DNA of 64,000 nt from a virus (lineage: Duplodnaviria; Caudoviricetes), in the IMG/VR virus record IMGVR_UViG_3300033405_000003; one strand, written 5' to 3'. Each line of letters begins with the position of its first letter. Position 1 is the stretch's first letter. The notes below the pieces were generated by a model that did no database searches, was not told where the DNA came from, and saw only the letters and a list, made by a program, of their open reading frames with translations. Both the position numbers and the translations under genes were made by a program. Shown here one piece after another: positions 5,912 to 61,673 of this stretch.

Positions 5912-6208
5912 TCAGCGCCGCTGCCAGGGCAGGTAACCCGCGAGGCGGTCGCCGAACTGGTTCATCGCGCGCTGGCGCGCCTCGCACGGCGTGCACGGCT
6001 GGATGCCGACGGCCTTCGTCACGCGCGCGACCGCGTCCCCGAGCGGGAGGCGGCTCCGGAACTGGGCCTGGTACTGCCGCGTGAGGCCGAGCGCGTCCTC
6101 GGGCGAAAGCTCGAGCCGCGCGCCGTGCTCGTCCACGGCGTAGGCCGGCGCCGTCGCCATCCCGTACCCGTCGTCGAGGATACTCCCGTCGGGAGCGACG
6201 TAGAGCAT
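5912..6208 (-). CDS. small phage protein with GD-x-V...GIxPCxxC-x2-R motif
   Basis: LGDAVARVTKAVGIQPCTPCEARQRAMN. Confidence 0.7.
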   Translation of the reverse strand: MLYVAPDGSILDDGYGMATAPAYAVDEHGARLELSPEDALGLTRQYQAQFRSRLPLGDAVARVTKAVGIQPCTPCEARQRAMNQFGDRLAGYLPWQRR

Positions 6209-6222
6209 TTCTCAAAATCCCT

Positions 6223-6795
6223 TCATGATGGCGTCACCTCGACCCTCTTGACCTTCCTCACGAGCAGGTACCCGACGACGCCGAGCCCGGCGAGCAGGGA
6301 GGCCGCGACCACGGCCCCGCCGACCTTCGAGGCCGTGGAGCGGAACGCGAAGAGTTCCTTGAGCGTGCTCTCGCCCGTGTCGAGCATCCCCTTGCCGATG
6401 GGGAAGAGCTTGTCCGCGTAGTGCTGGAGGCTCGCCGCCGGCGTCTTGCTGCAGATGGTGCAGCCCCAAGGCGAGCCCGCGACGGCGCGGAGCGTCTCGT
6501 CGGGCGGCGCGCTGCGCTTGAGGGCTGCCGTGATGGCGCTCATGTTCGACTGCGCGAGCGTCCTCGCGGTCGCCTCGATCCCCTGGTCCCAGCTCGAGTA
6601 TGCCTGCACGCCGACCGGCGTCACGGGGTGGCTGCCGGGGAGCTTCAGCGTCGTGTTGATGGGGTTGTAGGCGGCGGCGTTCGCCATGTGCCCGCCCTCG
6701 TTCGCCTGGAACGCGACGAGCGCGGCCACGTTATTCGCGCTCTCCGGGAGCCCGAGCCGCGCGAGGACCGCGTGCGCGAAGTCGGACGGGGTCAC
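6223..6795 (-). CDS. lysozyme-like muralytic protein with C-terminal TM anchor
   Basis: E-GG...YNPINTT...GVQAYSSWDQGIEAT; hydrophobic C-terminal helix. Confidence 0.6.
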   Translation of the reverse strand: MTPSDFAHAVLARLGLPESANNVAALVAFQANEGGHMANAAAYNPINTTLKLPGSHPVTPVGVQAYSSWDQGIEATARTLAQSNMSAITAALKRSAPPDETLRAVAGSPWGCTICSKTPAASLQHYADKLFPIGKGMLDTGESTLKELFAFRSTASKVGGAVVAASLLAGLGVVGYLLVRKVKRVEVTPS

Positions 6796-7300: not shown

Positions 7301-7495
7301 TCAGACCACCTTGTCGACCTTGTCGGCGGCCGATTCGAGGATCTTCGCGATCTTCTCCCAGGGGCGGCCCGCGCCCGGGTCCTGCCAGGCGCTCTCCAGC
7401 TCGCTCGCCGCCTCGTAGTAGGTCGCAGCCGCGTTGCGGAGGATCCGCGCCACCTTGTCCGGGTGGTCGACGTCGAGGTCGAGGTCCCTCGGCAT
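7301..7495 (-). CDS. hypothetical protein
   Basis: 64 aa helical ORF, TGATG coupling. Confidence 0.65.
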   Translation of the reverse strand: MPRDLDLDVDHPDKVARILRNAAATYYEAASELESAWQDPGAGRPWEKIAKILESAADKVDKVV

Positions 7496-7644
7496 CAGCG
7501 GCTCCGGCGGTGCTTAGCCTTGCGCTTGTGGCCGCCGCTGGCGCGCCTGAGCGCCTCGCCGGCGCGGTGGTACTCGCGTTTGGCTGCCGTGTAGGCCGCG
7601 CGGAGCGAGCCGTGGTGGCGACGGGTCTTGCGTTTCTTTGCCAT
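7495..7644 (-). CDS. protamine-like basic peptide (49 aa, absent from ORF track)
   Basis: MAKKRKTRRHHGSLRAAYTAAKREYHRAGEALRRASGGHKRKAKHRRSR; AAGGAG RBS. Confidence 0.75.
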   Translation of the reverse strand: MAKKRKTRRHHGSLRAAYTAAKREYHRAGEALRRASGGHKRKAKHRRSR

Positions 7645-7675
7645 GATCTTCTTCTCCTTCTTCATGCGCGCGGCG

Positions 7676-8566
7676 TCAAGACGTCGCGTTCTTCGTGGCC
7701 CCGTTCGGGGCCGAGACGTTCACGGCCGGCTGCGGCTGCGACTGCTGCATCACTTGCGTCGCGGTCTCGGGCGCGGCCTGGACCACTGGCGCCTGCGACG
7801 GCGGCGGGACGTACGCGCCGGGCGGGACGCCGTACGCAGCCTGGGCCGGAGCTGCGCCCGGCACGTACGGGGGGACGTACGCGCCGCCTTGCTGCGGCTG
7901 CTGCATCGGTTGGTTCGGCTGGTTCGACATAGGACCGAGCGGCATGGGCTGCGCCCGAAGGAGCGCTGCTGCGGCCTGCTTCGGGTCGCGGTAGTCGACG
8001 GGGCCTTGCGGCATCTCGGGCAGTGGTTGCTGCTGCTGCGGCTGCGCATACTGCCCTCCTCGCTGCTGCTCGGCGGGGCCCGGCCCGTAGGCTCCGCCTC
8101 CGGGCTGCGGGTAGGAGCCCTGCTGCGGGTATCCCGGCTGCTGCGGGTATTGGCCCGGTTGCTGCGGGTACTGCTGCTGCGGGTAGCCCGGCCCGAGCTG
8201 CGGCGGCGGGCGGCGCATCGGAGCCCTCGGTCCGCGGCCCATGAGGAACCGCTTCAGCTCGTCCTGCCAGTCAAGCTCGCCCTTCATGATGTTCTCGAGG
8301 TTCTGCTTCTTGGCCTCCCCCTTCGCGAAGAGGATGGCGAGGTGCTCGCCCATGGCGGGAGGGAGCTGCTCGCCCTCGAACGCCAGCGCGAGGTCGCCGA
8401 GGCCCGCGTCGAGCTTCATGAGCGCCTCCTGCTGGAACATGTAGCGCCTCTCGCTCTGGCCGATGAGCGCCATGAGCAGGCGCGGCGGGGCGTAGGCGCC
8501 CATGTCTTGGCGGCCGAGGCGCGCGTCCATGGGGCGGGGCGGGGGCGGCGGAAAGTTTCGGTTCAT
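7676..8566 (-). CDS. Pro/Gln/Gly-rich protein
   Basis: Start MNRNFPPPP overlaps the radA stop; YPQQPG repeats. Confidence 0.75.
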   Translation of the reverse strand: MNRNFPPPPPRPMDARLGRQDMGAYAPPRLLMALIGQSERRYMFQQEALMKLDAGLGDLALAFEGEQLPPAMGEHLAILFAKGEAKKQNLENIMKGELDWQDELKRFLMGRGPRAPMRRPPPQLGPGYPQQQYPQQPGQYPQQPGYPQQGSYPQPGGGAYGPGPAEQQRGGQYAQPQQQQPLPEMPQGPVDYRDPKQAAAALLRAQPMPLGPMSNQPNQPMQQPQQGGAYVPPYVPGAAPAQAAYGVPPGAYVPPPSQAPVVQAAPETATQVMQQSQPQPAVNVSAPNGATKNATS

Positions 8567-10119
8567 TGGATCTCGCTCTCGTTCTCTTCGGCCTCGCGGA
8601 GGGGGCTCTTGCGTTTGTCTTTCTTGATTTTCGATTGCTTGGGCTCGGGCGGCACGATCACGAAGCCCTCGAGCAGGTCGAACGCCTCCTCGAGCGACGT
8701 GACGGGATAATACCTCTCGTTGAGGTTCACCTCCTCGTCCGAGAGCGGCATCGCCAGTGCTTGTGACGCCTCGGGCCCGAAGTCGTAGGACGGGCGCCTG
8801 GGGCCCACGATCATGTCGAAGTGCATCGACATCGCGGTCTTGATGCGAGCGTCGATGTACGTGACCGGGCGGACTTCGCCCGCGAGGCCGACCTCGCCGA
8901 AGGCGACAAAGGACGGGGGCAAGGCAGTGCCGAGCGCGAACGACGCGAGGGCGAGCGCTAGCGGCAGATCGAGCGCCGGGTCCTTCACGTCGTCGAGGCC
9001 TCCAGGCAGGTTCACGAAGACCTCGCGGTTCAAGTCCAGGCCGAGCCGCCGCTGGAGGATCGCGATGATCTGCGTCGCGCGCTGGCTCGAGAGGCCCGTG
9101 ATCACGCGCTTGTGCTGCGCGCTCGACGCCCCGTTCGAGGAGGACGGGCCGAGGAGCGTCTGGAACTCGACCGCGTACGGGCGCGGGCCCGTCGCGACGA
9201 GGCCAATGCACACGCCCTCCTTGCCGTCCTTGTGGTGCTGCAGGAGCAGCTCGCTCGGGTTCTCGATCGAGCGCAGGCCCTCGCGGGTCATCCGGAAGAG
9301 GGCCATCTCCTCCGTCGAGCCGAAGCGGTTCTTGTTCGCGCGGATGGAGCGGATGTCTCCGAGCCCCTCCTTGTGGAACTCGAGCGTCGCGTCGACGAGG
9401 TGCTCGAGGACCTTCGGGCCCGCGATGGTCCCGTCCTTCGTCACGTGGGCCACGAAGAAACAGCCGATGCCGCGCCGCTTGCAGAGGTCGCGGAGGTAGA
9501 GCGCGCACTCCCGCACCTGCGTCACGGTGCCGGCGGCCCCGTCGACGCCCGGCATCACCATGGTCTGGATGCTGTCCACGATGAGGATGTCCGGGTCAAG
9601 CTCGGCGATCTGCTTGCCGACCTCCGTGACGTCGGACTCGTTGTGGAGGTAGAGCTTCTTCGACTCCCTCGAGAGGCGGACCGCGCGGCCCTTGATCTGC
9701 GAGGTCGTCTCCTCGGCCGAAACGTAGAGGATGACGAGGTCGTCGATCCGCTCGCCCGTCTGGTCGTCCGTCATCGGGGCCACCGAGAGGTCGATGCAGA
9801 CCTGGAGGAGCAGCGTGCTCTTGCCGATGCCCGGGTCGCCCGCGATCAGCACCGTCGAGCCCGTGACGATGCCCCCGCCGAGCACGCGGTCGAACTCGCG
9901 CGTCCCGGTCGAGATGCGCTCGTAGTCGGCCTCCGGCACGTCCGCGAGGAGCTGCGGCTTCTGGCCCGCGCCGATCCAGCGGTTGCCGGTTGAGGTCACG
10001 TCGCCGACCGCGATCGTGCCGGACGCGCCGCAGTGCGGGCAGGACGGGACCCAGTCCGGGCCGACGCCGCGCATGCAGGCCGTGCAGTGGTGGCCGATGG
10101 GTTTGCTCCGGTCGATCAT
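8563..10119 (-). CDS. radA: DNA repair/branch-migration protein RadA/Sms
   Basis: N-terminal C4 Zn finger, GDPGIGKS, IVDSIQ, KNRFG motif, Lon-like C-terminal domain. Confidence 0.95.
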   Translation of the reverse strand: MIDRSKPIGHHCTACMRGVGPDWVPSCPHCGASGTIAVGDVTSTGNRWIGAGQKPQLLADVPEADYERISTGTREFDRVLGGGIVTGSTVLIAGDPGIGKSTLLLQVCIDLSVAPMTDDQTGERIDDLVILYVSAEETTSQIKGRAVRLSRESKKLYLHNESDVTEVGKQIAELDPDILIVDSIQTMVMPGVDGAAGTVTQVRECALYLRDLCKRRGIGCFFVAHVTKDGTIAGPKVLEHLVDATLEFHKEGLGDIRSIRANKNRFGSTEEMALFRMTREGLRSIENPSELLLQHHKDGKEGVCIGLVATGPRPYAVEFQTLLGPSSSNGASSAQHKRVITGLSSQRATQIIAILQRRLGLDLNREVFVNLPGGLDDVKDPALDLPLALALASFALGTALPPSFVAFGEVGLAGEVRPVTYIDARIKTAMSMHFDMIVGPRRPSYDFGPEASQALAMPLSDEEVNLNERYYPVTSLEEAFDLLEGFVIVPPEPKQSKIKKDKRKSPLREAEENESEIQ

Positions 10120-11472: not shown

Positions 11473-11757
11473 TCAACGCGTGCGTGTGTGGTGCGCGTGA
11501 CGCATGCGGCGGCGGCGCCTCGCGAGAGAGGTCCTCGAGAGCGGGCCGTGGTGGTGCTTGAGGCCGCGCACGTTGAGCGCGAACTGGGCCATGTGCCCGA
11601 CGTGGCCGCCCTTGTGGACCTCCTTCTCGAGTTCGCGCGTCGGGATGTGCTCGCCGGGGGCGTAGCCCATCGCACGGTGGAGCGCTCCCTTGTGCTTCTT
11701 GACGCCGGTCGGCCCGATCCACTTGTACGGGCGCTTCTTCTTCCTCGCCATCGTCAT
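11473..11757 (-). CDS. small basic phage protein (putative DNA-binding/core)
   Basis: KWI...KGALHRAMG...GEHIP; Arg/His-rich tail. Confidence 0.7.
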   Translation of the reverse strand: MTMARKKKRPYKWIGPTGVKKHKGALHRAMGYAPGEHIPTRELEKEVHKGGHVGHMAQFALNVRGLKHHHGPLSRTSLARRRRRMRHAHHTRTR

Positions 11758-12350
11758 GCTCCTGTCTGCGCTGCCTGCGCGGCCACGGCGCCCATGTGCG
11801 CGCGATCCTGCGCGTTGATGCACCCGATCGAGTACCGGACGAGCAGCGCCGTCCGGCCGTCCATCCTGCCCGTCGCCGGCTCGCCGAAGCGCGCCTGCAG
11901 GCTCCTCACAGCCGCGCGCGTCTCTGGGCCCGGGACGCCGTCCTCCGCGAGCGGCGGCTGCGCGCCGAGGACGTTCAGGTCCTTCTGCGCGGAGAGCACG
12001 TCGAGCGGCGCCGAGAGCACGCGGAATGCCTGCACGACCTCCGCCGGCGCCTGCATGAGCGAGACGATGTCGGCGGCGAGGGCCTGGGGCTTGTACGTGT
12101 CGAGGATCTGCGCGGCGACCGTCGCTTCGTGGAGGTGCTGGAGGTAGTCGGCCGTCGTCGCGGGCGCCGGGCGCCGCGGGAGAAGAAGACGCTCGCGCGC
12201 GGGCGGGCGCGGAAAGGGATAATGGGCGCCCGTGACCGGCCCCGCGGGCCCCGTCATCTGCCGCTCGCGCGCGATCCGCGCCTCGGCGTGGCGCTGGGCG
12301 AGGATCCAGATCAGGAAGCCGCCGGGGAGGAGCCAGAAGAGGAGCGGCAT
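11754..12350 (-). CDS. N-anchored peptidoglycan-binding (PG_binding_1-like) protein
   Basis: EDGVPGPETRAAVRSLQ...ATGRMDGRT. Confidence 0.8.
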   Translation of the reverse strand: MPLLFWLLPGGFLIWILAQRHAEARIARERQMTGPAGPVTGAHYPFPRPPARERLLLPRRPAPATTADYLQHLHEATVAAQILDTYKPQALAADIVSLMQAPAEVVQAFRVLSAPLDVLSAQKDLNVLGAQPPLAEDGVPGPETRAAVRSLQARFGEPATGRMDGRTALLVRYSIGCINAQDRAHMGAVAAQAAQTGA

Positions 12351-12351
12351 G

Positions 12352-12873
12352 TCAGGTGCTCCCCGCCACGGCCGCGGCGAGCGCGGCGTTGGTCCTCGGG
12401 TCGATGATCCCGTCGATGTCGAGATCGTGGAGCGACTGGAAGCGCTTCACCGCGAGGGTCGTCGCGTCGTCCTGTACGCCCGTGAGCGGCACCGCGTAGC
12501 CGAGCTGCCGGAGCATCCTCTGGGCGTGCCACACCATGGCCGAGTGCCCGAAGGCTTGCCCGACGTGGTGCGGCGAGTTCGCCCGCGAGACTTCGGCGGC
12601 GCGCTTGCCCACCGTCGCGGCGGTCTGGTCGAACCCCGCGGCGGCGAGCTTGGCCCCGAGCACCGAGAGGACCGCGGGGTCGTGCTCGCCCGCGAGCGCG
12701 GTCAGCACGGCCGAGCGCGTCGGAGCGTCAAGCTCCGGGTCGAGCGAGTGGGCGAGCGCGGAGCCGTTGTGGTCTTTGTAGCGCCTCCGCGACGAGAAAA
12801 TGAGCAGACCCATGCCGATGGCGGCGCCCGCCACCACGGCTTTCTTCGCTGGGGTCCACTCGATCATCGACAT
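12352..12873 (-). CDS. N-anchored peptidoglycan-binding protein
   Basis: AQRMLRQLGY...AVKRFQSLHDLDIDGIIDPRT. Confidence 0.85.
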   Translation of the reverse strand: MSMIEWTPAKKAVVAGAAIGMGLLIFSSRRRYKDHNGSALAHSLDPELDAPTRSAVLTALAGEHDPAVLSVLGAKLAAAGFDQTAATVGKRAAEVSRANSPHHVGQAFGHSAMVWHAQRMLRQLGYAVPLTGVQDDATTLAVKRFQSLHDLDIDGIIDPRTNAALAAAVAGST

Positions 12874-48568: not shown

Positions 48569-48641
48569 GGCACTCCTTCGTGAGGCGCCGTCGCGGCGAC
48601 GATTTCGACAAGAAGATCGTCGCCGCTCCGGGCGCCCGTCG

Positions 48642-51782: not shown

Positions 51783-53051
51783 TCAAACATTGATATAGAA
51801 GAACGCGAAGAACGGGATCTCGATGGACCCCGCGGCGGCGCTGTTGCCGCCGAAGACGTCGATGGACGTGGCGCCGGGCACGATCGGCACGGGCGACTCC
51901 GGGTCGGACGGGAACGGCCCGACAGTCGCCCCAGGGATGTCGAGGTTCTGCGTCCACTCGACCGTGACCGCGGCGGGCGTGTCCGCGGGGTTGTAGAACC
52001 CCCCGAAGATCGCGACCGAGATCGCGCCGTGCGGGATGGGGATCCGCGCGCGGTTCGTGAAGGGCGCAGGCGAGGGACCGCTCGACGGCACGCTGCCGTT
52101 AAAGATGCGCGTCGGGAGCGTCTCCTGGTCGGGCGTCGGGGAGAGGCCCTCGGCGGGCCACCCCGAGAAGATCACGGGGACCTGCTGCGCCCCGGCGTTC
52201 ACGATCGTGCCTGGGATGTTCCCCTGAAGCTCCATGATGTTCGGGGGCAGGTCCGAGAACGAATCGTTCGTGAGTTCGGGGCCGCCGGGGTAGAGGAGGT
52301 ACGTCCGGAGAATGTCCGGCTCCGCGCCGGTGTCCGCGTGGGCGAAGTAGCGCGGGACGATGCGCCCGGCGATCCGGAGGAACGAATCGACCGTCGGGAG
52401 CTTCACCATGGTGCCCGGCCGCACGTCGAACGCCATCTGGCGCTGGGTGCCGAGGTGCCCGAACGCCGCGACGGCGATCGAGACGGCCCCGCCGAAGAAC
52501 GGCGTCGCGGGTTCGCTCGAACCCACCGGCACGACGAGGAGCGGGGAGTTGCTGCTGGGCGCAGGCGGGTCGACCTGCACGACGCCGAGGATCTCGCGCC
52601 CGAGTTCCCAGCGGATGCGCACCGGCGAGGCCGGCGTGTCGAAGGTCGCTGGGCTCCAGGTCCCTTCCTCCTGCTGCGCGATGTCGTCGCCGTCCCGGCG
52701 CCTGAGCCTCTCGCTCAGCGGGACGATGGCGACGTCCTGGTGCGTGATCGGCGCGCGGTGCCCGACGGAGTCCTGCTTGCCGTAGCGAGCGGGCAGGCGC
52801 GGGTCTGGGCTGGGCTGGTTCTCGATCGTCGATCGGCCCTGGGCGTACTGGAGGTAGTCGGGGTTGTCGGGCGACTCCCACGCGATCTGCGGCCCCTCGG
52901 CGTACGGCGCGTAAGGGAGCTGGACGAGTTCGCCCTGGCGGTTGAACGCGTAACCGAACGGGGCGACCTGCCCGTACTGGTTGTGGGTGAAGTACTCCGG
53001 CAGGCCCGGGACGTACCCGTGCTGCTGCGAGTGCGGGCCTTGGCCGTTCAA
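51783..53051 (-). CDS. beta-rich structural protein candidate (vertex/penton-like?)
   Basis: TTG start after GAGG; aromatic N-terminal arm followed by beta-patterned domains. Confidence 0.6.
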   Translation of the reverse strand: MNGQGPHSQQHGYVPGLPEYFTHNQYGQVAPFGYAFNRQGELVQLPYAPYAEGPQIAWESPDNPDYLQYAQGRSTIENQPSPDPRLPARYGKQDSVGHRAPITHQDVAIVPLSERLRRRDGDDIAQQEEGTWSPATFDTPASPVRIRWELGREILGVVQVDPPAPSSNSPLLVVPVGSSEPATPFFGGAVSIAVAAFGHLGTQRQMAFDVRPGTMVKLPTVDSFLRIAGRIVPRYFAHADTGAEPDILRTYLLYPGGPELTNDSFSDLPPNIMELQGNIPGTIVNAGAQQVPVIFSGWPAEGLSPTPDQETLPTRIFNGSVPSSGPSPAPFTNRARIPIPHGAISVAIFGGFYNPADTPAAVTVEWTQNLDIPGATVGPFPSDPESPVPIVPGATSIDVFGGNSAAAGSIEIPFFAFFYINV

Positions 53052-53290: not shown

Positions 53291-54373
53291 TCACGGCTGC
53301 TCGATGCAGTAGAGCGAGTACTGCTGCCCGCAGACGTAGAGATAATTCTCCTCCGTCCAGCTCGAGTTCGTGGAGGAACCGAGGCCGAAAGAGCCGGCGT
53401 AACTATCGCTGCCCTCGGTCCAGTTCGCGCACGTGCAACCGGACGAGCTGTTGCACCCGGCGAGCGTCGTGCCGTCGGGCGCGGTGCCCGTCCAGGCGAC
53501 CCCGGAGAAAGGCGCCGTGGTTTCGTTGACCAGCACGAGCGTGTTGTGCTCGTCCCGATCGATGGCGTGGAGGAGCGATCCGGACGCGAGGCCCGTCCAA
53601 TCGTTCGCGACGACGGTGCCGTCGAGCAACTGGTACGGGACGCTCGCGTGCTCGAGGCGCGAGGCGGCGCTCGACGTCGACGTGGAGAGCCACGCGGCCC
53701 ACGTGCCGCCGAGCCCCGCGCCCGTCGCGACAGAACCGCACGTCGAATCGGCCCCGGAGGAACCACCAAAATTCGCCGAGTAGTCCCCCGAGGTGATGAA
53801 GACGCGCCTGTAGGCCTGGACATGCGCGTCCGCCTCCGCGGAGTCGGTGCTGGCGTCCACCGTCACGGGGCCATCGACCGCAGCGTCCGCGTCCGCCCGA
53901 CCAGACTCCACCGCCGCATCCGTCTGCGCGTCCCCTGGATCGCCGCCGTCAGGGTACAGGAAGGTGTCGGTGGAGCATCCCGCCGTGGCCAGGGACGTAC
54001 AGGCTCCCACGAGGGCGAACAACCAGGCCCGCAGCGGATAAGGCGTCCGGCGCGCGGATCGACCCCAAGCCTTGCGGATGACCCTACACTCGCCGAGCAC
54101 GCGAGCCGCCAGGTCGTCCGCCGCGCTGATGACGCGGTCGAGGCTTCCGCGCTCACCCGCGTCCGCACCCACCGGCGCGCACTCGTCGCAGCTCGCCCCC
54201 GCGCCCTCGGCGACGTCGCCCATCTCGTCCATCCAGACGAAGACGTCGTCCTCCGCGCCCTCGCTCACCCGCACGTGCGCTCCTGCGTGGATGCTCGAGA
54301 GCCTCGACGCAAGGTGCTCGCACCACCCCTCGCCGCCGTGCGCCGTCGAGACGTGGATCGTGACGCCGCTCAC
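53291..54373 (-). CDS. DUF1554/endostatin-like lectin-fold lipoprotein (start uncertain)
   Basis: Lipobox-like TAGC, DA-rich linker, RRVFITS...GADSTC...WAAWLS...LYCIEQ. Confidence 0.75.
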   Translation of the reverse strand: MSGVTIHVSTAHGGEGWCEHLASRLSSIHAGAHVRVSEGAEDDVFVWMDEMGDVAEGAGASCDECAPVGADAGERGSLDRVISAADDLAARVLGECRVIRKAWGRSARRTPYPLRAWLFALVGACTSLATAGCSTDTFLYPDGGDPGDAQTDAAVESGRADADAAVDGPVTVDASTDSAEADAHVQAYRRVFITSGDYSANFGGSSGADSTCGSVATGAGLGGTWAAWLSTSTSSAASRLEHASVPYQLLDGTVVANDWTGLASGSLLHAIDRDEHNTLVLVNETTAPFSGVAWTGTAPDGTTLAGCNSSSGCTCANWTEGSDSYAGSFGLGSSTNSSWTEENYLYVCGQQYSLYCIEQP

Positions 54374-55104
54374 GGCTGCTCCATGCAGATGAAGGAGAGC
54401 GTGGCCGCCGCCTCGCAGTAGGAGACGTAGTCGGTCCAGTCCGCGCCCGTCTGGTTGTCGATCCCGCAGGCGCCCTCGTGCGCCGCGTCGTCCGACCCGC
54501 TCGCGTACGTCCAGTCGGAGCACGTGCTGTCGGTGTACGTCGTGCTCGTGGAGCCGTCCGCGGCCGTGCCCGTCCAGGCGAAGCCGGACGTGTAGTACGC
54601 GATGGGAACGGCCTTGCCGTTCTCGTCGAGGCCGATCGGGGCCGAGAGCGGCCCCGTCGTCAGGGACGACCAGTTCGCGGCGATCTCGGTCCCGTCAAGG
54701 AGCTTGTAGGGCACTGCCGCGTGCTCGAGACGCGACGCCGCGCTCGTCGCCTTCGTCGAGAGCCAAGCGGCCCAGTTCCCGCCGAGGCCGGCGCCCGCCG
54801 CCGCGTCGGCGCACGCCTTGTCGGCGACCGCGAGCCCGCCGAAGTTCGGCCCGAAAGTCTTCGACGTGAGAAAGACGCGCCGGTACGACGGGAGCGTGTA
54901 TCCGTCGTAGCCGTCGCCGCTGCCGGAGTCGGCCGGGCCCGCATCGGCGTCGCCAGAGTCAGGGTCAACGGGCGCGTCCGTGGCGGCGTCCGCGACGGGG
55001 GGCCCGTCGCTGGGATCTGCGGCGTCCCCGCCGTCGGGAAAAGTGAGCGCGGGGCTCGCACCCGAGCAGCCGACCAAAATCAACATCAGATAAATGTGGC
55101 GCAT
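54370..55104 (-). CDS. DUF1554/endostatin-like lectin-fold lipoprotein
   Basis: MRHIYLMLILVGC lipobox; RRVFLTS...ADKAC...WAAWLS...FICMEQ. Confidence 0.8.
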   Translation of the reverse strand: MRHIYLMLILVGCSGASPALTFPDGGDAADPSDGPPVADAATDAPVDPDSGDADAGPADSGSGDGYDGYTLPSYRRVFLTSKTFGPNFGGLAVADKACADAAAGAGLGGNWAAWLSTKATSAASRLEHAAVPYKLLDGTEIAANWSSLTTGPLSAPIGLDENGKAVPIAYYTSGFAWTGTAADGSTSTTYTDSTCSDWTYASGSDDAAHEGACGIDNQTGADWTDYVSYCEAAATLSFICMEQP

Positions 55105-55342: not shown

Positions 55343-55900
55343 TCAGTGACGGTCGTGCGGCCCGAAGAAAAAGCTGAACGGATCCGCTTCCTTGAGCATG
55401 GCGAACATCTCCTCCATGCGCTGGAGCCGCTGCGCGAAGTGGCTCACCCGCCCGAAGGACAGGAGGACCATCTCCGAGCCCGCGATCATCCTCGCGAGGT
55501 TCGTGGCGGCGCTCGCGGCCTCGTGCGGGTTCGTGTTCGGGTGCGTGGCGAGCTTCAGGTACTTCTGCGCCTTCAGCTCGATCTTCTCGCACGCCCCCAC
55601 GTCAAACTGCTCGAGCGTGATCTCGCCGGCGTGCTCCTCCGCGTACTCCTGCAAGCGCTGGCGCATGCCGTCGATGAACGCGCGAAGCTCGTCCGGGTAG
55701 CGCCTGCGGCGCGTCGGGAGCAGGTGTGCCGCGAGCCTGTAGCCCCCGAGGCGCCAGCTCTTCACGACTTCTGGGTAGGGGGGCTCGCGGTAACCGCTGG
55801 TGGGGTGAATCTTCGCGATGAGCCACTCGCCCACCTCGCGGTAGAAAGATGTCTCCGATTCGCGACCCTCGAGCCGTGTCCCGGTGTAGTCCATCGTCAC
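55343..55900 (-). CDS. protein with DUF2786-like motif
   Basis: KYLKLATHPNTNPHEAASA. Confidence 0.7.
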   Translation of the reverse strand: MTMDYTGTRLEGRESETSFYREVGEWLIAKIHPTSGYREPPYPEVVKSWRLGGYRLAAHLLPTRRRRYPDELRAFIDGMRQRLQEYAEEHAGEITLEQFDVGACEKIELKAQKYLKLATHPNTNPHEAASAATNLARMIAGSEMVLLSFGRVSHFAQRLQRMEEMFAMLKEADPFSFFFGPHDRH

Positions 55901-57156
55901 GCTCCCGCCGACTGCGCGGCCTTGTAGTACATCTCGAGCAGGTTCGACAGCTCGACGAGCGCGAGCTTGCTGATGCCGTCGAGGAGGTCGAGGAGCTTCT
56001 TGCCCGTGAGGGGGTCCGACTGCATAGCGGCGCCGAACATGAGCGCCAGGCCCGTGATCCGCTCCACCCCCTCCTCCTCGTCGAGGTCGGGGGCCTCGCT
56101 CGCGGCGACGACCTCGTCGAACAGGGCCCGTTGCTCCTCGCTGAGGACGTCGCGCACGGCCTCGAATTTACCACGCGACCGGCAGAGCGACACGAAGCGC
56201 GCCGTGTCCAGCGCGACCCGTATCTTGAGATCGCCGAGGTCGGGCGCCGGCGGCCCGTCCTCCCCCTCGCCCTGCGGCTGCGGCTTGCCGTGCCCGTTCC
56301 TGCCGTTGGCGTGCTCCTCTGGCCGTTCCGCCTTCCCGTTCGTGCGCTTCTGCTCAGCGTACCAGGCCTGGAAATCCGGCGAGTTCGCGTAGCCACCGGG
56401 ACCGCCGCTGAAACGCTGGATGGCCCGGATCACGTGCGGGAGAAGCTCGGGCGCGACCTTCTCCTTCAGGAACTCGAAGCTCTCGCGCTTCGTCTTCGCG
56501 TCCTCCTCGTCCTGCTTGCGCTTCTTGTCCCGCTCGTACTGATGGTCCTCGGCGTTCAGCGCGACCTCGCGGAGCTTCAGCTCGCGGTCGGTGTATCCCT
56601 GCACGACGTCGCTGTACTGCTGGTTCTGCTTCATGATCGTGTTGAACACCAGCTCGGCCTTCTGCTCGATGCGCGCCTCCTTCTCGGACACGTACTTCAG
56701 GAGGTCCGGCATGAGCCGCTCCGCGATCCCGACCTCCTCCCTCCCGCCGTGCGGGCCGCCGCGACCAGGCGCGAGCGCGAGGTGCTGCACCTCCTGCCCT
56801 CCCGGGACCTTGAACACGAACGTCGATCGGTTGTTGTAGCTCTTCGCGTGGAACGCGAGCGTGTAGACGCAGTCGCCGCCGAAGCGGTACGCGGCGTCGC
56901 GGCACGCGGCCAGCTCGACGCCCCTCACGATCGTCGGGATCCCGATGCCCTTGCCGTAGAGGTCGCGCTCGTCCCATTCCGTGATGTCGTCCTCCCGGCC
57001 CCCGTGCGGGTCGCGGAACCGGAGGCTCATGCGCACGATCTTCCGGCTCTCCTCGTCGCCCTTGTCCTCGAAGGCGGGCTTGTCGTAGCGGAGCCGGTCG
57101 GCGATCGCGACGGTCACCTCGCGGCGAGTCTCGACTGCGAAATCAAAGGTCGGCAT
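55897..57156 (-). CDS. hypothetical protein with central coiled coil
   Basis: 419 aa, GAGG RBS. Confidence 0.8.
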   Translation of the reverse strand: MPTFDFAVETRREVTVAIADRLRYDKPAFEDKGDEESRKIVRMSLRFRDPHGGREDDITEWDERDLYGKGIGIPTIVRGVELAACRDAAYRFGGDCVYTLAFHAKSYNNRSTFVFKVPGGQEVQHLALAPGRGGPHGGREEVGIAERLMPDLLKYVSEKEARIEQKAELVFNTIMKQNQQYSDVVQGYTDRELKLREVALNAEDHQYERDKKRKQDEEDAKTKRESFEFLKEKVAPELLPHVIRAIQRFSGGPGGYANSPDFQAWYAEQKRTNGKAERPEEHANGRNGHGKPQPQGEGEDGPPAPDLGDLKIRVALDTARFVSLCRSRGKFEAVRDVLSEEQRALFDEVVAASEAPDLDEEEGVERITGLALMFGAAMQSDPLTGKKLLDLLDGISKLALVELSNLLEMYYKAAQSAGA

Positions 57157-58119: not shown

Positions 58120-58539
58120 CCGCCCCCTGGTGTCAACGGCTTTCCAGCGCAGAAAAATTGCGTGCAACACGCACGCCCAATACATCAGTGCCTACGCACC
58201 CTTGCGTCACGGCAGCGGCACGATCTCGTTTCCTCTGGAAAGCGGCAGAGCCGCGGTGTTAGAACCAAAACTCGGCCCTGAATCCCCGCGATCGGCGCGA
58301 GCCGGTCGGGGCATCCAGCCCGATGAGGAGGTCCTGCCACTGCCGACCGCACGAATGGGCGCTCTCTAAATCTCTCAAACGCCAAGCGCCGCCTGAGGTC
58401 TCGACTCCTCGGCGGCGCTCCTTCACAAGTCTGGTCGGCGGCGCATCCCAACCATGCGCACCAAGAAGCTTACCTGCTCTGTCGTTCATTGCAAGCGCTT
58501 TAAACTTGACACCGTCCCGACTCTTCCAGAGGGGCCACG

Positions 58540-59325
58540 GTGAAGAAGCGCAAGACGATCGCCTCGCTCGCCCGCGGGCACGTGCGCGCGCTCGCCGGCC
58601 GCGGGATCAAGATCGACGCCGGCGGCAGGCGCGCGCGCAAGGACGGGCGGCCGATCTCGAGGGAGAAGCTCGAGCGCGCCGTCGCCGCCATCGAACGCGC
58701 CAAGAAGAGACCCGCGAAGCCGGCCGCGAAGAAGACCGCGCCGCGCCGGCGCCCCGGGGAACTCTCCGAGCGCGACGCGTTCATCCTCGAGTCGCTCGTC
58801 CGCAACCACCTCACCCCCGAAGTGCAGAAGCGGTACATCAAGAACCTCTCGGCCGCCGGCCGCGAGGTCCTCAAGCAGCGCGAGGTCAAGGAGAGGATCG
58901 CCGCCGCCGGCCGCGAGGAGAAGGAGAGGCGCGAGAAGGAAGAGGAGCGCGCCCGGAGGGCGGAGGAGAAGGAGAGGGCGAGGATGGAGGAGCTTCGCGC
59001 GAACTGGGCCAAGGCCGACGTGCTCCTCAAGCAGGCCATCCAGAGCAAGTCGTTCTTCATGGAGTGGGAGGTCATCGCGAAGGTCCTCGGCCTCCCGCCG
59101 CGCGAGGTGTTCGAGCGCGGGCTCACGCTCCAGGGCGCCAGACCGGGCGCGGTGAAGGTAACCTGGAAGGACTGGCAGCGCGCCGAAAGGCTCATACGCG
59201 ACGCGATCAGGCGCGGCACGTTCGACAGCGAGTACGACAGGATCGCCGCCGCCACGGGGCTCACCGCCCGCGAGATCTACACGCTCGGCATCAGCCCCCC
59301 GTCGCTCGGGACCGCGACCGCCTGA
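58540..59325 (+). CDS. basic helical protein; terminal-protein candidate
   Basis: 261 aa, K/R/E/A-rich, TGATG-coupled to PolB; function inferred from position and size. Confidence 0.55.
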   Translation: MKKRKTIASLARGHVRALAGRGIKIDAGGRRARKDGRPISREKLERAVAAIERAKKRPAKPAAKKTAPRRRPGELSERDAFILESLVRNHLTPEVQKRYIKNLSAAGREVLKQREVKERIAAAGREEKERREKEEERARRAEEKERARMEELRANWAKADVLLKQAIQSKSFFMEWEVIAKVLGLPPREVFERGLTLQGARPGAVKVTWKDWQRAERLIRDAIRRGTFDSEYDRIAAATGLTAREIYTLGISPPSLGTATA

Positions 59326-61673
59326 TGTCGAAGCCCAAGAAAGAAGCGAAACCCGTCACCGGCCGCCAGCTCTCCATCGCACGCGCGAAGGACGCCGTCG
59401 CCTTCCAGGAAGAGATCAAGAAGGCGATCGAGGGGCCGGCCGACAAGCCGCTCGGGCCGCTCGGGCCCCCGCCGCGCAGGCGCGCCAAGCAGGTCAAGGA
59501 GAACGAGACCCCGGGGGAGATCTTCGCCGGCGTCGACGGCGAGGGCAAGGGCAGGAACCCCCACCTCTACGTCATGCTCTGCGCCGCCGACGAGTTCGGC
59601 AAGAACCGCTGGAGCGTGGAGGACCCCGCCGGCCTCTCCACGAGCGCGTGCCTCGACTTCTTCCTCGAACTGCCGGCCTCGGTGAAGTGCTTCGCCTTCT
59701 CGTTCAACTACGACCTCACGAAGCTCCTCGCCGACGTGCCGAACGACGCGCTCTACAGGCTCGTCCGCCCCGAACTCAGGCAGAGACCGCCGGGCAGCAA
59801 GGTGACCGCGCCCTTCCCCGTCCGCTGGAAGGACCCGAGGACCGAGAGGGTCTACCTCCTCAACATGCAGGGAACGAAGTTCACCGTCGCGGTCCGGTAC
59901 AAGACGCGCCAGGGCAAGGTCGCCACGCGGAGCCGGATCATCTGGGACACGTTCAAGTTCTACCAGAGCAAGTTCACGGTCGCGCTCCGCGACTGGCGCG
60001 TCGCCACCGCCGAGGGCTGCAGCAACAACAAGCCGTGCCTCTCCGCCGCCTGCCCGGTCTGCCAGATCGAGGTCATGAAGGACAAGCGCTCCGAGTTCGA
60101 CCGGCTCGACGACGAGGCCATCAAGGCCTACTGCTGGAGCGAGTGCATGTACCTCGGGCAGCTCGCGCGCAAACTCGTCGACGCGCACGCGGACGCCGGC
60201 CTCGAGCTGAAGAACTTCTACGGCGCGGGATCCTCCGCCTCCGCCATGCTCGGCCTCATGGGCATCAAGGAGAAGCGCAAGGAGCCGCCCGACGCGATGA
60301 AGGAGGCCGTGTCGAGCGCGTTCTTCGGCGGCCGGTTCGAGCACAGCGTGATCGGCCCGATCGAGGGGCCGGTCTACTCGTTCGACATCTCGTCGGCCTA
60401 CCCCTATCAGTGTTGCTTCCTGCCATGCCTCGAGCACGGCACCTGGACGAAGACCAAGAGCAGGAAGGACATGCTCAAGGCCAAGGCCGCGCTCGTCCAG
60501 TACCGGCTGGAGGAGCCGAAGGAGAAGCTGCCGTGGGCGCCGTTCCCGTACCGCGACGCGGACGGCAGCATCACCTTCCCCGACAGGTCCGGCGGCGGGT
60601 GGGTGTGGCGCGACGAGTACCTCGCCGGCGAGAAGCTCTTCCCGTACGTCAAGTTCCGGAGCGCGTGGGTCCTCGACGGGCCCTGCCGGTGCGAGCCGTT
60701 CAGGATGATCTCGCGCTACTACATGAACAGGCTCCGCCTCGGCAAGGAGGGCGCCGGCATCGCGCTCAAGCTCGGCTGCAACTCGTGCTACGGCAAGCTC
60801 GCCCAGAGCGTCGGCGGCACCCCGCCGTTCCAGAGCTGGATTTGGGCCGGCATGATCACCTCCGGCTGCCGCGCGCAGATCCTCGAGATGATGTCGCTCC
60901 ACGACGACCTCTCGAACCTGCTCTCCATCGCCACCGACGGCATCTACACCCGCGAGGACATCAAGACCCCGGCCCCGATGGACACCGGGACGATGAACGC
61001 ACGACGCTCGCCCGCCGAGACGGAGGCCGCGCAGAAGAAGGGCGAGAAGTGCTCCGCCTGCGGCGCCATCGGCTGCGACCTCGCGCACAAACCGCTCGGC
61101 GGCTGGGAGCGCAAGGTCGTGAAGAAGGGCGTCTTCTTCGCGCGGCCCGGCATCTACTTCCCGCTCAACCCGACCCAGGAGGAGCTGAAGACCGTCCGCG
61201 CGCGCGGCATCGGCCGCGCCGCGATGTTCGAGGCGTGGGAGGCGATGACCACCGCGTTCGCGCAGGGCAAGGAGGAGATCCACATCGAGAACGACAAGCT
61301 CGAGCGGTTCTGCGGCATGAAGAGCCAAATCACGATCTCGGGCGCCAGCTCCGCGAACCCGACGTACACGCGCTCGCCGAACTACGGAAGCTGGGTCCCC
61401 CGGCCCACGGACCTCTCGCTCAACCCGATGCCGAAGCGGGACGCGAAAGTCGTGAGGCCCCGGGGCGCCGACTACGGTATCCTCACGGTCAGGGCCATGG
61501 ATCCCGACGTCTCCTCCGCTCCCTACTCGCGCGCCGTCGGCGAGCGCGCGCCCGACGCGCTCCTGCTCAAGGCCGCGGAGCTTGAGGCCATGGAGCAGCC
61601 CGATGGCGGCGATCTCGAAGAGAACGATCTCCTCTTCGACGACGACGTCGACTACAACTTCGACGACATGTGA
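59325..61673 (+). CDS. family B DNA polymerase, protein-primed type
   Basis: Exo GVDGEG, FNYDL; FFGGRFE; DISSAYP; KLGCNSCYGK; ATDGI; LGGW. Confidence 0.92.
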   Translation: MSKPKKEAKPVTGRQLSIARAKDAVAFQEEIKKAIEGPADKPLGPLGPPPRRRAKQVKENETPGEIFAGVDGEGKGRNPHLYVMLCAADEFGKNRWSVEDPAGLSTSACLDFFLELPASVKCFAFSFNYDLTKLLADVPNDALYRLVRPELRQRPPGSKVTAPFPVRWKDPRTERVYLLNMQGTKFTVAVRYKTRQGKVATRSRIIWDTFKFYQSKFTVALRDWRVATAEGCSNNKPCLSAACPVCQIEVMKDKRSEFDRLDDEAIKAYCWSECMYLGQLARKLVDAHADAGLELKNFYGAGSSASAMLGLMGIKEKRKEPPDAMKEAVSSAFFGGRFEHSVIGPIEGPVYSFDISSAYPYQCCFLPCLEHGTWTKTKSRKDMLKAKAALVQYRLEEPKEKLPWAPFPYRDADGSITFPDRSGGGWVWRDEYLAGEKLFPYVKFRSAWVLDGPCRCEPFRMISRYYMNRLRLGKEGAGIALKLGCNSCYGKLAQSVGGTPPFQSWIWAGMITSGCRAQILEMMSLHDDLSNLLSIATDGIYTREDIKTPAPMDTGTMNARRSPAETEAAQKKGEKCSACGAIGCDLAHKPLGGWERKVVKKGVFFARPGIYFPLNPTQEELKTVRARGIGRAAMFEAWEAMTTAFAQGKEEIHIENDKLERFCGMKSQITISGASSANPTYTRSPNYGSWVPRPTDLSLNPMPKRDAKVVRPRGADYGILTVRAMDPDVSSAPYSRAVGERAPDALLLKAAELEAMEQPDGGDLEENDLLFDDDVDYNFDDM

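Follow-up and report, generated by a model that had tools for sequence, protein, structure and literature searches.

A large linear element of peat bacteria with a tectivirus-related protein-primed polymerase and a candidate double-jelly-roll capsid protein

The window, the 64-kb stretch of DNA analysed here, is the right-hand part of a ~219-kb linear dsDNA element from peat bacteria; the other ~155 kb of the genome come from other assemblies. The element belongs to an undescribed large lineage, marked out by a protein-primed polymerase related to that of tectiviruses. The polymerase gene, PolB (59325-61673, plus strand; 782 aa), matches PF03175 (E 1.8e-8) and phrog_11768 (1e-29). A 1116-aa ORF starting at 58323 was considered as PolB and rejected. 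Exo I, II and III are conserved, as are motifs A and B, and 34 of 34 aligned relatives have ATDG as motif C. The nearest cultured relatives are tectiviruses, with 25-30% identity and E values down to 7e-39, and matches include the Rhodococcus phages Toil and P19, Streptomyces phage WheeHeim and Microbacterium phage Badulia. At E<=1e-5 there are 918 PolB homologs; their habitats are soil, peat and sediment, and their contigs measure 20-74 kb or, in a separate clade, 125-600 kb. Coupled to PolB is a basic 261-aa ORF (58540-59325, plus strand; net charge +27) whose stop overlaps the PolB start. Homologs lie directly 5' of PolB in 11 related loci (family HMM E 3.7e-106). By analogy of position with PRD1, phi29 and adenovirus, the product is a candidate terminal protein. 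A previous reading of the sequence alone had described a protein-primed type of PolB with a coupled basic ORF, and both descriptions hold.

Base composition and contig ends point to a right genome terminus at 63871-64000. The final 130 nt of the window are 45% G+C and are preceded by 700 nt of gene-free DNA at 75% G+C. A Logan contig (run SRR10873275) stops 3 nt past the window end; this run may be the window's own source sample, in which case its contig end lends no independent support. A 217,939-bp ENA contig stops ~630 nt short of the window end. The distance from PolB to the contig end is 2.3 kb, and this end is common, within ~630 nt, to three assemblies, at least one of which may derive from the window's source sample. 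Related contigs of 65 kb and 10-18 kb also end just past PolB. We take the contig end near PolB to be an AT-rich genome terminus and count it in favour of a tectivirus-like element.

Facing PolB and the basic ORF is an operon of 64 genes on the minus strand, running from 57156 down to 5912, which encodes fibre paralogs, PG-binding proteins, TM proteins and protamine-like peptides. Its best candidate for a major capsid protein, on the basis of predicted fold, predicted trimer and conservation, is 51783-53051 (minus strand). AF2 predicts a disordered N-terminal region of ~120 aa followed by jelly rolls at residues 127-302 and 303-422, with pLDDT ~85-95 over residues 127-420. The 38 homologs (52-81% identity) are all ~420 aa long and lie on 125-600 kb contigs; none could be demonstrated in the smaller relatives (hhalign probability 4%). 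In Foldseek, double-jelly-roll (DJR) capsid proteins are among the best matches and have the highest probabilities: PBCV-1 Vp54 (E 4.5e-5, prob 0.97-0.98), PRD1 P3 (E 5e-5, prob 0.90), and also SGIV, STIV and PR772. All VIA matches of ~200 residues are DJR-fold proteins, among them PRD1 P3 (Z 5.8, rmsd 6.8, 214 aligned), STIV MCP (Z 5.8, rmsd 6.4, 201 aligned), FLiP MCP (Z 5.7, rmsd 6.1, 200 aligned) and GH172 (Z 5.3-5.9). These matches are modest (Z 5.4-5.9, rmsd 4.4-6.8 A, Foldseek TM ~0.2), and generic single-domain sandwiches outscore the DJR proteins (Z 7-7.8). GH172/DUF2961 proteins are known cellular homologs with the DJR fold (PMC8812541). The model fits bicupin seed proteins and GH172 enzymes no worse than it fits capsid proteins, so the DJR fold is not in itself proof of a capsid role. 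As a homotrimer the protein is predicted with ipSAE 0.78, against 0.00 for the best control; trimer runs agree on at least 80% of contacts, with a partner pLDDT of 83 or more. Of the proteins solved as one-chain pairs, 20 of 30 attain the 0.78 mark, as does 1 of 23 solved as single chains; these counts apply only approximately here because we used our own alignment and three copies. The trimer result may also echo a likeness to solved jelly-roll trimers.

The earlier reading had set its capsid module elsewhere in the operon, at a Cys-His-Asp protease beside two paralogous beta-sandwich proteins. The motif, the neighbours and the paralogy all stand, with the protease putative from sequence; the sandwiches are indeed jelly-roll-like, but 51783-53051, which that reading did not flag, is the better capsid candidate. 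Jelly-roll folds in at least one ORF were nonetheless what it had called for, and AF2 and Foldseek predict them. The Cys-His-Asp protein (15810-16265, minus strand), a putative cysteine protease or transglutaminase-like enzyme, has no sequence match in Pfam, PHROG or PDB; homologs occur in 26 related loci, and D79-C80, H122 and P134-S135 are invariant across 21 relatives. The single beta-sandwich protein (17348-18022, minus strand) consists of a Gly/Pro-rich N-terminal arm and a ~110-aa domain and is conserved lineage-wide: iterated HMM searching brings in 34 ORFs from related loci, and hhalign links the protein to the relatives' family with probability 97.9. In the relatives L023, L059 and c100 a member of the family sits beside the Cys-His-Asp gene, and several relatives carry two adjacent paralogs. 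Its two-sandwich paralog here (16269-17117, minus strand; 38% identity over 83 aa, E 3e-9) is restricted to the large-genome clade, and its AF2 model (pLDDT 86.9) has two beta-sandwich domains and a C-terminal helix. Best VIA matches of the model are jelly-roll sandwiches with middling, indecisive Z: GOLD (Z 9.3, rmsd 2.8, 96 aligned), a nanovirus coat (Z 8.2, rmsd 3.3, 102 aligned) and the capsid proteins of HHIV-2 (Z 7.8, rmsd 5.2, 110 aligned) and HCIV-1 (Z 6.8, rmsd 3.8, 113 aligned). Both paralogs look like single jelly rolls of the penton or minor-capsid kind. A small conserved protein, 18193-18666 (minus strand), lies 5' of the beta-sandwich genes, has homologs in the equivalent position in L023, L059 and L049, and is marginally linked by HMM to family 8 of the relatives (E 1e-3).

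The 17348-18022 family, the Cys-His-Asp protein and a RadA-derived ATPase form the lineage-wide core. In the window the ATPase is a full-length RadA/Sms homolog (8563-10119, minus strand) at the end of the long operon, matching RadA of PDB 5LKM with E 6e-87 over residues 20-442. RadA-derived ATPases are found in 35 related loci, in 1 of 35 on the same strand as PolB; shorter forms are the lineage's only conserved P-loop ATPase, and the surroundings of PolB yielded no other Walker-A family. No FtsK/HerA or A32-type packaging ATPase was found in ~122 of ~219 kb, flank search included.

Much of the remaining operon encodes surface-type and basic proteins. Eight modular fibre/spike-like proteins occupy 20850-33706 (minus strand; ORFs at 20850, 23332, 26551, 27432, 28390, 29375, 30212 and 32024). 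Those at 20850-32020 are a linked paralog set of shuffled modules and 32024-33706 is built of repeats, in keeping with the many fibre paralogs first noticed; homologs occur in the 45-kb relative c100. The region matches phrog_4577, phrog_13925 and phrog_5596. Next to it, a 742-aa protein (33898-36126, minus strand) with a globular N-domain, a ~200-aa Gly/Ala-rich hydrophobic stretch and Cys-rich C-terminal mini-modules is, judging by sequence, a candidate membrane-penetration protein; it has no Pfam or PHROG family match, and its ESM Atlas model (pLDDT 0.34) is unusable. A lysin-like, membrane-anchored PG_binding_1 protein follows at 36133-37308 (minus strand), with PF01471 matches (E 1.6e-21 and 2.9e-10), endolysin PHROGs and N-terminal TM segments; further PG-binding ORFs lie at 18836-20524, 11754-12350 and 12352-12873. 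The protamine-like peptides that had been noted are confirmed as a basic 92-aa protein (11473-11751, minus strand; 26% K+R), a candidate DNA-condensing core protein, and a second peptide at 7495-7665 (41% K+R). The former has a homolog in the 45-kb relative (c100_29513-29791, E 2e-10), likewise after a PG-binding gene. Seven tandem paralogs of 140-174 aa (46203-49600, minus strand; all-against-all BLASTP E 1e-9 to 1e-32) have two copies in L004, a relative with 90% PolB identity. Two paralogs at 53291-55104 (minus strand), 43% identical over 251 aa, share a Cys-rich C-terminal domain with faint DUF1554/endostatin-like matches (PF07588 and PF06482, below cut-offs); the second also carries a lipoprotein-type signal. 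The figure of about 20 small TM proteins is fair and threshold-dependent: with a 19-residue segment of Kyte-Doolittle mean >=1.6 as criterion, 19 minus-strand ORFs qualify, 12 of them <260 aa, and 23 more lie at 1.2-1.6.

No terminase, portal, capsid, sheath, tube or tape-measure family was matched by any of the 87 called ORFs of the window in Pfam or PHROGs, as the sequence-only reading had maintained. It had looked to the flanks for contrary genes; Pfam tables of the 58 kb upstream contain no terminase, portal, HK97 or tail families. The same is true of the 45-kb relative, and in 80 relatives the large ORFs of the PolB neighbourhood show no tailed-phage hallmarks. The screen covers ~122 of ~219 kb; the other ~97 kb, roughly 58-155 kb upstream of the window, lie outside it. 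The proposed myxobacterial host has a weak lead in its favour: the element's IF3 is nearer to its best Myxococcota match (63% identity) than to its best Acidobacteriota match (49%), these being the two phyla compared. The earlier minimum of 60 kb for the genome was right as to large size, the actual size being ~219 kb.

We give about an even chance to the reading that this is a giant tailless double-jelly-roll virus of bacteria. Of the tailless, membrane-containing, adenovirus-like virus proposed before, the PolB type, the predicted jelly rolls and the lack of hallmarks in ~122 kb agree; the virion roles, internal membrane, priming and packaging we infer. From its gene identity and position, the basic protein 58540-59325 would prime DNA synthesis by PolB at the AT-rich genome end, and the 64-gene operon would produce the particle. 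The shell could consist of trimers of 51783-53051, with 17348-18022 and 16269-17117 as possible vertex fillers or minor capsid proteins and the Cys-His-Asp enzyme perhaps processing virion proteins. Protamine-like peptides would condense the DNA, an internal membrane would be built with the many small TM proteins, the eight modular fibres would bind the host, and membrane-anchored PG-binding proteins would open the wall. The RadA-derived ATPase might unwind DNA or pump it into the particle. If true, such a virus would have ~219 kb, against <50 kb for such viruses of bacteria otherwise. Against this reading count the lack of an FtsK/HerA/A32-type ATPase in ~122 kb, a ~50-aa phrog_4577 'tail protein' module in two fibre paralogs (the only tail-labelled match), and accessory genes elsewhere in the ~219-kb genome: a tRNA array (42 tRNAs), tmRNA, Ro60, IF3 and Ku, identified in part from Pfam tables. 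To our knowledge, it is tailed jumbo phages that have so far yielded tRNA arrays, tmRNA and translation factors.

These last two points, together with the size, would fit a tailed jumbo phage (Caudoviricetes) of the 'huge phage' kind whose replication module was swapped for a protein-primed PolB, a possibility that we consider unlikely. The hallmarks would then lie in the ~97 kb outside the screen or be too divergent, and the window operon would be a tail-fibre, baseplate and accessory region; one fibre paralog does have weak tblastn matches to the tailed phages RcCWillis and Mae-JY02. However, a terminase is normally easy to detect, and the hallmarks are absent from the screened 122 kb, the 45-kb relative and the PolB surroundings in 80 relatives. 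The best-conserved structural candidate is predicted as a double jelly roll, not HK97, and PolB and 51783-53051 queries found no clade members in the IMG/VR copy searched.

We think it quite unlikely that this is a non-viral element, such as a linear plasmid with protein-primed replication or something extrachromosomal of a similar kind. The operon would in that case encode cell-envelope proteins (lipoproteins, PG-binding anchors and adhesin-like fibres), and 51783-53051 would be a trimeric DJR-fold lectin or glycosidase comparable to cellular GH172/DUF2961. Many products do have signal, lipoprotein or TM features or periplasm-type PG_binding_1 or OmpA domains, GH172 enzymes fit the model as well as capsid proteins, and the ~122 kb yielded no packaging ATPase. 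The flank holds an IS element, a toxin-antitoxin-like gene and defence-type genes, and in a 600-kb contig one relative's end is fused to bacterial gene fragments. Yet 51783-53051 has no Pfam DUF2961 or cupin match, several window ORFs match PHROG phage families, no conjugation or partition machinery was seen in the window, and PolB, terminal-protein candidate, jelly rolls, Cys-His-Asp protein, basic peptides, fibres and lysin-like proteins make up a tectivirus/adenovirus gene set.

Least probable, and in our view very unlikely, is a tailless virus whose shell is formed by 17348-18022 and 16269-17117, the capsid module first proposed, much as P23-77, SH1 and HHIV-2 (Helvetiavirae) use two vertical single-jelly-roll capsid proteins; 51783-53051 would then be a spike or other virion protein. 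In its favour, the 17348-18022 family is lineage-wide, paired in several relatives, and lies beside the Cys-His-Asp gene with the ATPase not far away, and there are the HHIV-2 and HCIV-1 matches. But their Z are no better than those of GOLD and the other generic sandwiches listed, the conserved domain is only ~110 aa, and the operon also encodes the DJR-like, length-invariant, predicted-trimer protein.

Set against known systems, the putative giant DJR virus resembles jumbo or 'huge' tailed phages in its >200 kb, many tRNAs, tmRNA, translation factor, expanded paralog sets and numerous ORFs that match no known family, and differs in lacking terminase, portal, HK97, sheath, tube and tape measure in 122 kb and in replicating by protein-primed PolB, which we know in tailed phages only from small phi29-like genomes. 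Like Helvetiavirae, it has two side-by-side paralogous jelly-roll-type genes near an ATPase; the genomes of SH1 and HHIV-2 are linear and carry terminal proteins. Structurally the likeness to Helvetiavirae is weak, and the element differs from them in paralogs that have sequence and a ~110-aa domain in common, in a RadA-derived ATPase, and in the additional presence of a DJR-like protein. With Tectiviridae (PRD1, Bam35 and the actinobacterial Toil, WheeHeim and Badulia) it shares a protein-primed PolB near the genome end with a basic ORF directly 5', a DJR-like predicted-trimer capsid candidate plus single-jelly-roll candidates, many small membrane proteins, membrane-anchored wall-binding proteins and fibre/spike genes. 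It differs in size (~219 kb against 15-18 kb), in its PolB (25-30% identical, motif C ATDG), in its flank with tRNA array, tmRNA, Ro60, IF3 and Ku, and in a conserved RadA-derived ATPase instead of the FtsK/HerA type, which was not found in ~122 kb; no sequence similarity to tectivirus structural proteins was detected. Adenoviridae and polinton-type viruses (Preplasmiviricota) likewise combine terminal protein and protein-primed PolB, a DJR hexon and jelly-roll penton, a cysteine enzyme beside capsid genes, arginine-rich core peptides and fibres, for each of which the element has a candidate counterpart. Here, in contrast, the host is bacterial, to judge from PG-binding, OmpA and lipoprotein features, and no relation of the Cys-His-Asp enzyme to adenain/Ulp1 could be detected. 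Preplasmiviricota are described as having genomes <50 kb (PMC11071308). The resemblance to Adenoviridae and polintons is one of logic, any sign of common descent being confined to PolB and the fold.

The window has a G+C content of 66-72% and holds 87 genes, as called from codon-position G+C and a self-trained codon model, with no tRNA genes found in its 64 kb. Genes occupy the plus strand to ~5.3 kb, then form an uninterrupted train of 64 minus-strand genes running from 57156 down to 5912, and return to the plus strand from 57334 to the end. The DNA derives from peat metagenomes; its PolB gene occurs in six runs from six studies, four of which are possible sources of this DNA, and two peat runs beyond these contain 97% and 89% of the gene's sampled words. 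The same virus has been assembled as contigs of 217,380, 217,939 and 218,699 bp. In an ENA contig, ~63.4 kb separate window position 1 from one contig end, and a Logan contig from run SRR10873275 ends 3 nt past window position 64000, although this run is possibly the window's own source and is therefore not independent support. Based on these contig ends, the full genome measures ~219 kb, and the window makes up its right-terminal 64 kb. The sequence-only reading had proposed a genome of at least 60 kb; it is indeed large, but at ~219 kb, and it carries jumbo-phage accessory genes. The terminal 130 nt have a G+C content of 45% and are preceded by 700 nt of gene-free DNA at 75%. An exact match to the terminal 31-mer was not found in JGI contigs. 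Protein-primed replicons have 5' ends covalently bound to a terminal protein, together with inverted terminal repeats; the window offers a candidate by position for the former (58540-59325) and an AT-rich end common to several assemblies. In a 600,485-bp relative (L004:12724-19969; ENA ERZ25039491 contig_10361), whose PolB is 90% identical to that of the window, the terminal region corresponds to window 63545-63985 at 73% identity. Past the exact end point of the window, this contig continues with a frameshifted DUF2126 gene fragment, followed by fragments of transglutaminase-core, TyrRS/TrpRS-type, IS110 transposase and AnmK genes. The junction could be an integration junction, junk captured at a linear end, or a chimeric assembly.

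All elements listed in the sequence-only reading are present: a PolB with a coupled basic ORF, a paralogous beta-sandwich pair, fibre paralogs, TM proteins and basic peptides. PolB (59325-61673, plus strand; 782 aa) matches phrog_11768 and PF03175, the latter with 34.2 bits against a curated cut-off of 25.8. Its exonuclease motifs DxE, NYD and YCxxE (Exo III), motif A (DISSAYP) and motif B (KxxxNSxYGK) are invariant or nearly so. The usual motif C of PolB enzymes is DTDS. Here it is ATDG in 34 of 34 aligned family members, so that throughout the family another residue stands in for one of the usual two aspartates. Judging from the alignment, ATDG is a family trait and not a sign of decay, the exonuclease motifs and motifs A and B being intact. 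A Cys/His cluster, possibly a zinc finger, lies in the N-terminal part of the protein ahead of Exo I. A 1116-aa ORF starting at 58323 was considered as PolB and rejected as an artefact of two overlapping frames; the true start is 59325. The basic ORF immediately upstream (58540-59325, plus strand) encodes 261 aa with a net charge of +27, and its stop overlaps the PolB start. Its position makes it a terminal-protein candidate.

Of the candidates scored, 918 are homologs of PolB at E<=1e-5. Hundreds have ~50% identity and come from soil, peat, rhizosphere and sediment, where their contigs measure 20-74 kb; a close clade at 80-90% identity includes two larger contigs, of 279 and 600 kb. Contigs of 125-600 kb number at least ten in the lineage. 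The nearest PolBs of cultured phages are those of actinobacterial tectiviruses (25-30% identity, E down to 7e-39). A copy of IMG/VR (2.9 million contigs, where absence is weak evidence) gave no match to PolB alone or to the alignment of the capsid candidate discussed below, and the PolB alignment recovered only three relatives there, on contigs of 8-11 kb. PolB relatives also occur in three metagenome-assembled genomes, one assigned to Pyrinomonadaceae, one to Polyangiaceae and one labelled 'uncultured archaeon'. The first of these (G003, locus L010), which is marked unpublished, contributes few rows to the family alignments and no conclusion rests on it.

Core genes were compared between the window, a complete 45-kb relative from the archaeon-labelled bin (c100) and 80 JGI loci. 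A terminal-protein-like ORF upstream of PolB was present at 11 loci, a RadA-derived ATPase at 35, almost always on the strand opposite PolB, and a counterpart of the window's Cys-His-Asp protein (15810-16265, minus strand) at 26. The family of the beta-sandwich protein at 17348-18022 (minus strand) comprised 34 ORFs after one HMM iteration, with an hhalign probability of 97.9. Also in the core are a small protein resembling 18193-18666 (minus strand) and, one after the other, a PG-binding protein and a small, very basic one. At two loci (L023 and L059) the genes run in the order PolB, 18193-like, 17348-like and Cys-His-Asp. In c100 the block consists of the ATPase, two small genes, the sandwich protein, the Cys-His-Asp protein, further genes, the PG-binding protein, the basic protein and fibres, and it is collinear with the window genes from 18022 down to 11473. 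Also in c100 (23939-24964), and at 12 related loci, there is a beta-rich protein of 250-340 aa with a lipoprotein-type signal, a hydrophobic stretch ending in Cys, and a terminal WGIEG or FGIDG; this gene lies within the conserved module, after the Cys-His-Asp gene in the smaller relatives, and a link between it and the window's capsid candidate found no support. In smaller relatives (L075 and 15 other loci) the strand of PolB also encodes, downstream of it, a SNF2-type helicase (phrog_62, E 8e-85; 13353-14792 in L075), which has no counterpart in the window.

The gene at 51783-53051 (minus strand) was chosen for modelling because of its beta-rich C-terminal 300 residues, its early place in the operon and its strong conservation at constant length; its 38 homologs (52-81% identity) are 415-449 aa long and lie on contigs of up to 600 kb. 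In the model the N-terminal third is disordered, and residues 127-420 (pLDDT ~85-95) form ~16 strands in two consecutive sandwiches. Foldseek returned 127 PDB matches at E<=1e-3, headed by bicupin seed globulins and double-jelly-roll (DJR) capsid proteins. The highest probabilities belong to the latter, namely PBCV-1 Vp54 (E 4.5e-5, probability 0.97-0.98) and PRD1 P3 (E 5e-5, probability 0.90), with SGIV, STIV and PR772 also present, all at TM-scores of only ~0.2. VIA-align matched single domains at Z 7-7.8 (SIDT1 N-domain, GOLD). Its matches spanning both domains (193-217 residues; Z 5.3-5.9, rmsd 4.4-6.8 A) are all double-jelly-roll proteins: PRD1 P3 (Z 5.8, rmsd 6.8, 214 aligned), STIV MCP (Z 5.8, rmsd 6.4, 201 aligned), FLiP MCP (Z 5.7, rmsd 6.1, 200 aligned), PR772 P3 (Z 5.4, rmsd 6.0, 204 aligned) and three GH172 enzymes (Z 5.3-5.9). 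In cells, the recognised homologs of DJR capsid proteins are GH172/DUF2961 proteins (PMC8812541). A trimer prediction with three copies of residues 123-422 scored 0.78, against 0.00 for the best control. Of proteins solved as pairs of one chain, 20 of 30 score as high, and of those solved as single chains, 1 of 23; with a custom alignment and three copies these counts apply only roughly here, and a pass can mirror likeness to solved jelly-roll trimers. The trimer runs agreed in at least 80% of contacts with partner pLDDT of at least 83, and the best of them sets the second jelly roll of one copy against both of those in the next, the arrangement expected of six barrels in a ring. These models lean towards a DJR capsomer as the most economical reading of 51783-53051, not a proof of it. 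Phmmer against the PDB found no match for 51783-53051 or for 55897-57156, the operon's first gene, which was rejected as a capsid candidate because it is helical and charged. Kinship of 51783-53051 with the relatives' lipoprotein-like family 19 was also rejected, hhalign giving it a probability of 15% and then of 4%. The best-supported explanation, which we regard as an even call, is the one originally proposed, a large jelly-roll virus that has no tail and follows tectivirus/adenovirus logic; the capsid candidate has moved to a different gene.

The main rival is a tailed jumbo phage with its hallmark genes outside the ~122 kb screened, an explanation in keeping with the jumbo-phage accessory genes and one that we consider unlikely. 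That terminase, portal, capsid and tail genes are not recognisable held up: neither Pfam nor PHROGs placed terminase, portal, capsid, sheath, tube or tape-measure families in the 87 window ORFs, though divergent versions could escape profiles. Terminase, portal, capsid and tail families, HK97 capsid included, were likewise absent from the precomputed Pfam tables of same-virus assemblies to ~58 kb upstream, which brings the Pfam-level screen to ~122 of 219 kb, and none of the four was found in the 45 kb of c100 or in the large ORFs of the 80 relatives. A portal match in c100 (phrog_15528, E 5e-9) did not come from any of the 20 plus-strand ORFs that were scanned one by one, which leaves ORFs of <280 aa and the RadA-like ATPase of 313 aa as its source; an annotation artefact is probable and a real portal unlikely. 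What Pfam and PHROGs do match in the window is PG_binding_1/endolysin-type domains in several membrane-anchored proteins, the RadA/Sms homolog, an ABC ATPase, a dual-specificity phosphatase domain and, in two fibre paralogs, a module of ~50 aa belonging to a PHROG with the annotation 'tail protein'.

Paralogy was confirmed for the beta-sandwich pair, the fibre set (20850-33706, minus strand), a seven-gene tandem family and a lipoprotein-like pair. A strongly hydrophobic 19-mer occurs in 19 ORFs of the minus-strand train, and two peptides of the window are 26-41% Lys+Arg. Two further minus-strand proteins were considered as portal or capsid and rejected on reading. That at 33898-36126 is a hydrophobic Gly-zipper protein with Cys modules, and that at 32024-33706 is a repeat fibre: a 560-aa all-beta protein with the look of a fibre shaft, in which three ~75-aa repeats each carry an NGDVxGPSNAN-type motif, and which precedes seven module-shuffled fibre paralogs. 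Small Cys-x2-G-x2-[WR]D-x5-C modules are found in both 33898-36126 and 42693-45413, and their sequence suggests disulfide-bonded extracytoplasmic domains. His-rich and GRG[HF]-type low-complexity repeats occur in 42693-45413 and 13632-15269. Small plus-strand ORFs at 2976-4045 give weak Pfam matches to DnaJ and adenylosuccinate synthetase, and a PHROG match to 2-aminooxy adenylosuccinate synthetase.

Upstream of the window, the Pfam tables show Ku, an OmpA-domain protein, IF3, a SEC-C protein, an IS (DDE) transposase, an antitoxin-like gene, Ro60 (TROVE + vWA) and HNH; after a protein-free gap come a histone-deacetylase-like enzyme, a metallophosphatase, a PLD nuclease, GmrSD_N, HEPN and NUDIX. 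The Ku, IF3, Ro60, OmpA, transposase, antitoxin-like, histone-deacetylase-like and GmrSD_N/HEPN defence-type genes at ~9-58 kb upstream (L098, L100, L101, L102) would be unusual cargo if the virus is tailless. The PG-binding, OmpA and lipoprotein features point to a bacterial host with an outer envelope. IF3 of the element reaches 63% identity at best among 201 Myxococcota genomes, with ~60% to the Polyangiaceae bin that also carries a PolB relative, and 49% at best among 201 Acidobacteriota genomes, a sample including four genomes marked unpublished (G003, G227, G252, G355), none of which gives the best value. In this comparison of Myxococcota and Acidobacteriota, the myxobacterial host suggested by the sequence-only reading is only a lead. 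We think a non-viral linear element quite unlikely. No near match to the window was found in a plasmid collection. Even if the capsid reading fails, linear elements sharing PolB, the RadA-like ATPase, the jelly-roll protein and the Cys-His-Asp protein constitute, as far as could be found, an undescribed lineage, no description of which was found in the literature.

The paralogous pair at 16269-17117 and 17348-18022 (both minus strand) carry jelly-roll-like sandwiches with generic matches, and stand as penton candidates. The model of 16269-17117, from 32 aligned sequences, has a pLDDT of 86.9 and shows two beta-sandwich domains and a C-terminal helix. Foldseek against PDB and BFVD returned nothing at E<=1e-3. 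VIA-align matched GOLD (Z 9.3, rmsd 2.8, 96 aligned), a nanovirus coat protein (Z 8.2, rmsd 3.3, 102 aligned), the HHIV-2 capsid protein (Z 7.8, rmsd 5.2, 110 aligned) and HCIV-1 (Z 6.8, rmsd 3.8, 113 aligned); the modelled fold is of jelly-roll type, with scores in a range that the tool calls common. The neighbouring Cys-His-Asp family profile found nothing in the PDB. A shell made of single jelly rolls, those of this pair, is improbable.

The RadA/Sms homolog of the window (8563-10119, minus strand) matches the RadA structures 5LKM and 8RXC at E 6e-87 over residues 20-442, and in Pfam AAA_25, a KaiC-type ATPase and ChlI. RadA/Sms proteins combine a Zn-finger, a RecA-like ATPase and a Lon-like C-terminal domain, and the window protein has full-length similarity to solved RadA; the short ATPase of c100 matches 5LKM at E 1e-18. 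By these similarities the ATPase of the lineage is a true RadA relative. A second conserved Walker-A ATPase was not found near PolB in relatives. Across the window, the 58 kb upstream and the PolB neighbourhoods of the 80 relatives, Pfam and PHROGs identified no packaging ATPase of the FtsK/HerA superfamily (A32/P9-like), and the only conserved P-loop ATPase is the RadA-derived one. It is possible, though we hold it tentatively, that this is the first bacterial DJR (Varidnaviria) lineage at giant size, 125 to >280 kb, with translation factors, and with a RadA-derived hexameric translocase inside the morphogenetic module replacing the FtsK/HerA motor.

To our knowledge, the tailless DJR viruses of bacteria and archaea are small, and every jumbo phage described so far is tailed. 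In the present lineage, widespread in soil and peat, a genome of 219 kb with accessory genes of the jumbo-phage type goes together with protein-primed replication and a DJR-like candidate for the capsid. If this is true, the realm has evolved giant genomes not only in eukaryotes but also in bacteria, which would parallel, among prokaryotes, the expansion of small polinton-like viruses into giant eukaryotic viruses, and virus-detection pipelines, whose collections contain almost none of these contigs, have a blind spot. It raises the questions of how 219 kb are packaged without a recognisable packaging ATPase, whether RadA can act as a packaging motor, and how a PolB whose motif C is ATDG works. 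Helvetiavirae have two vertical single-jelly-roll major capsid proteins, encoded beside the packaging ATPase. Two paralogous sandwich proteins are found here as well, but the HHIV-2 and HCIV-1 matches (Z 6.8-7.8) do not rise above those to generic sandwiches. Tectiviridae have an internal lipid membrane, and the TM-rich small ORFs of the window are suggestive of one. Their genomes are ~15-18 kb, against ~219 kb here (contigs of 217,939 and 218,699 bp), and under its definition the family does not include the element. PMC11071308 gives the size of Preplasmiviricota genomes as <50 kb. The element may nonetheless work like Tectiviridae, despite falling outside the definition of the family.
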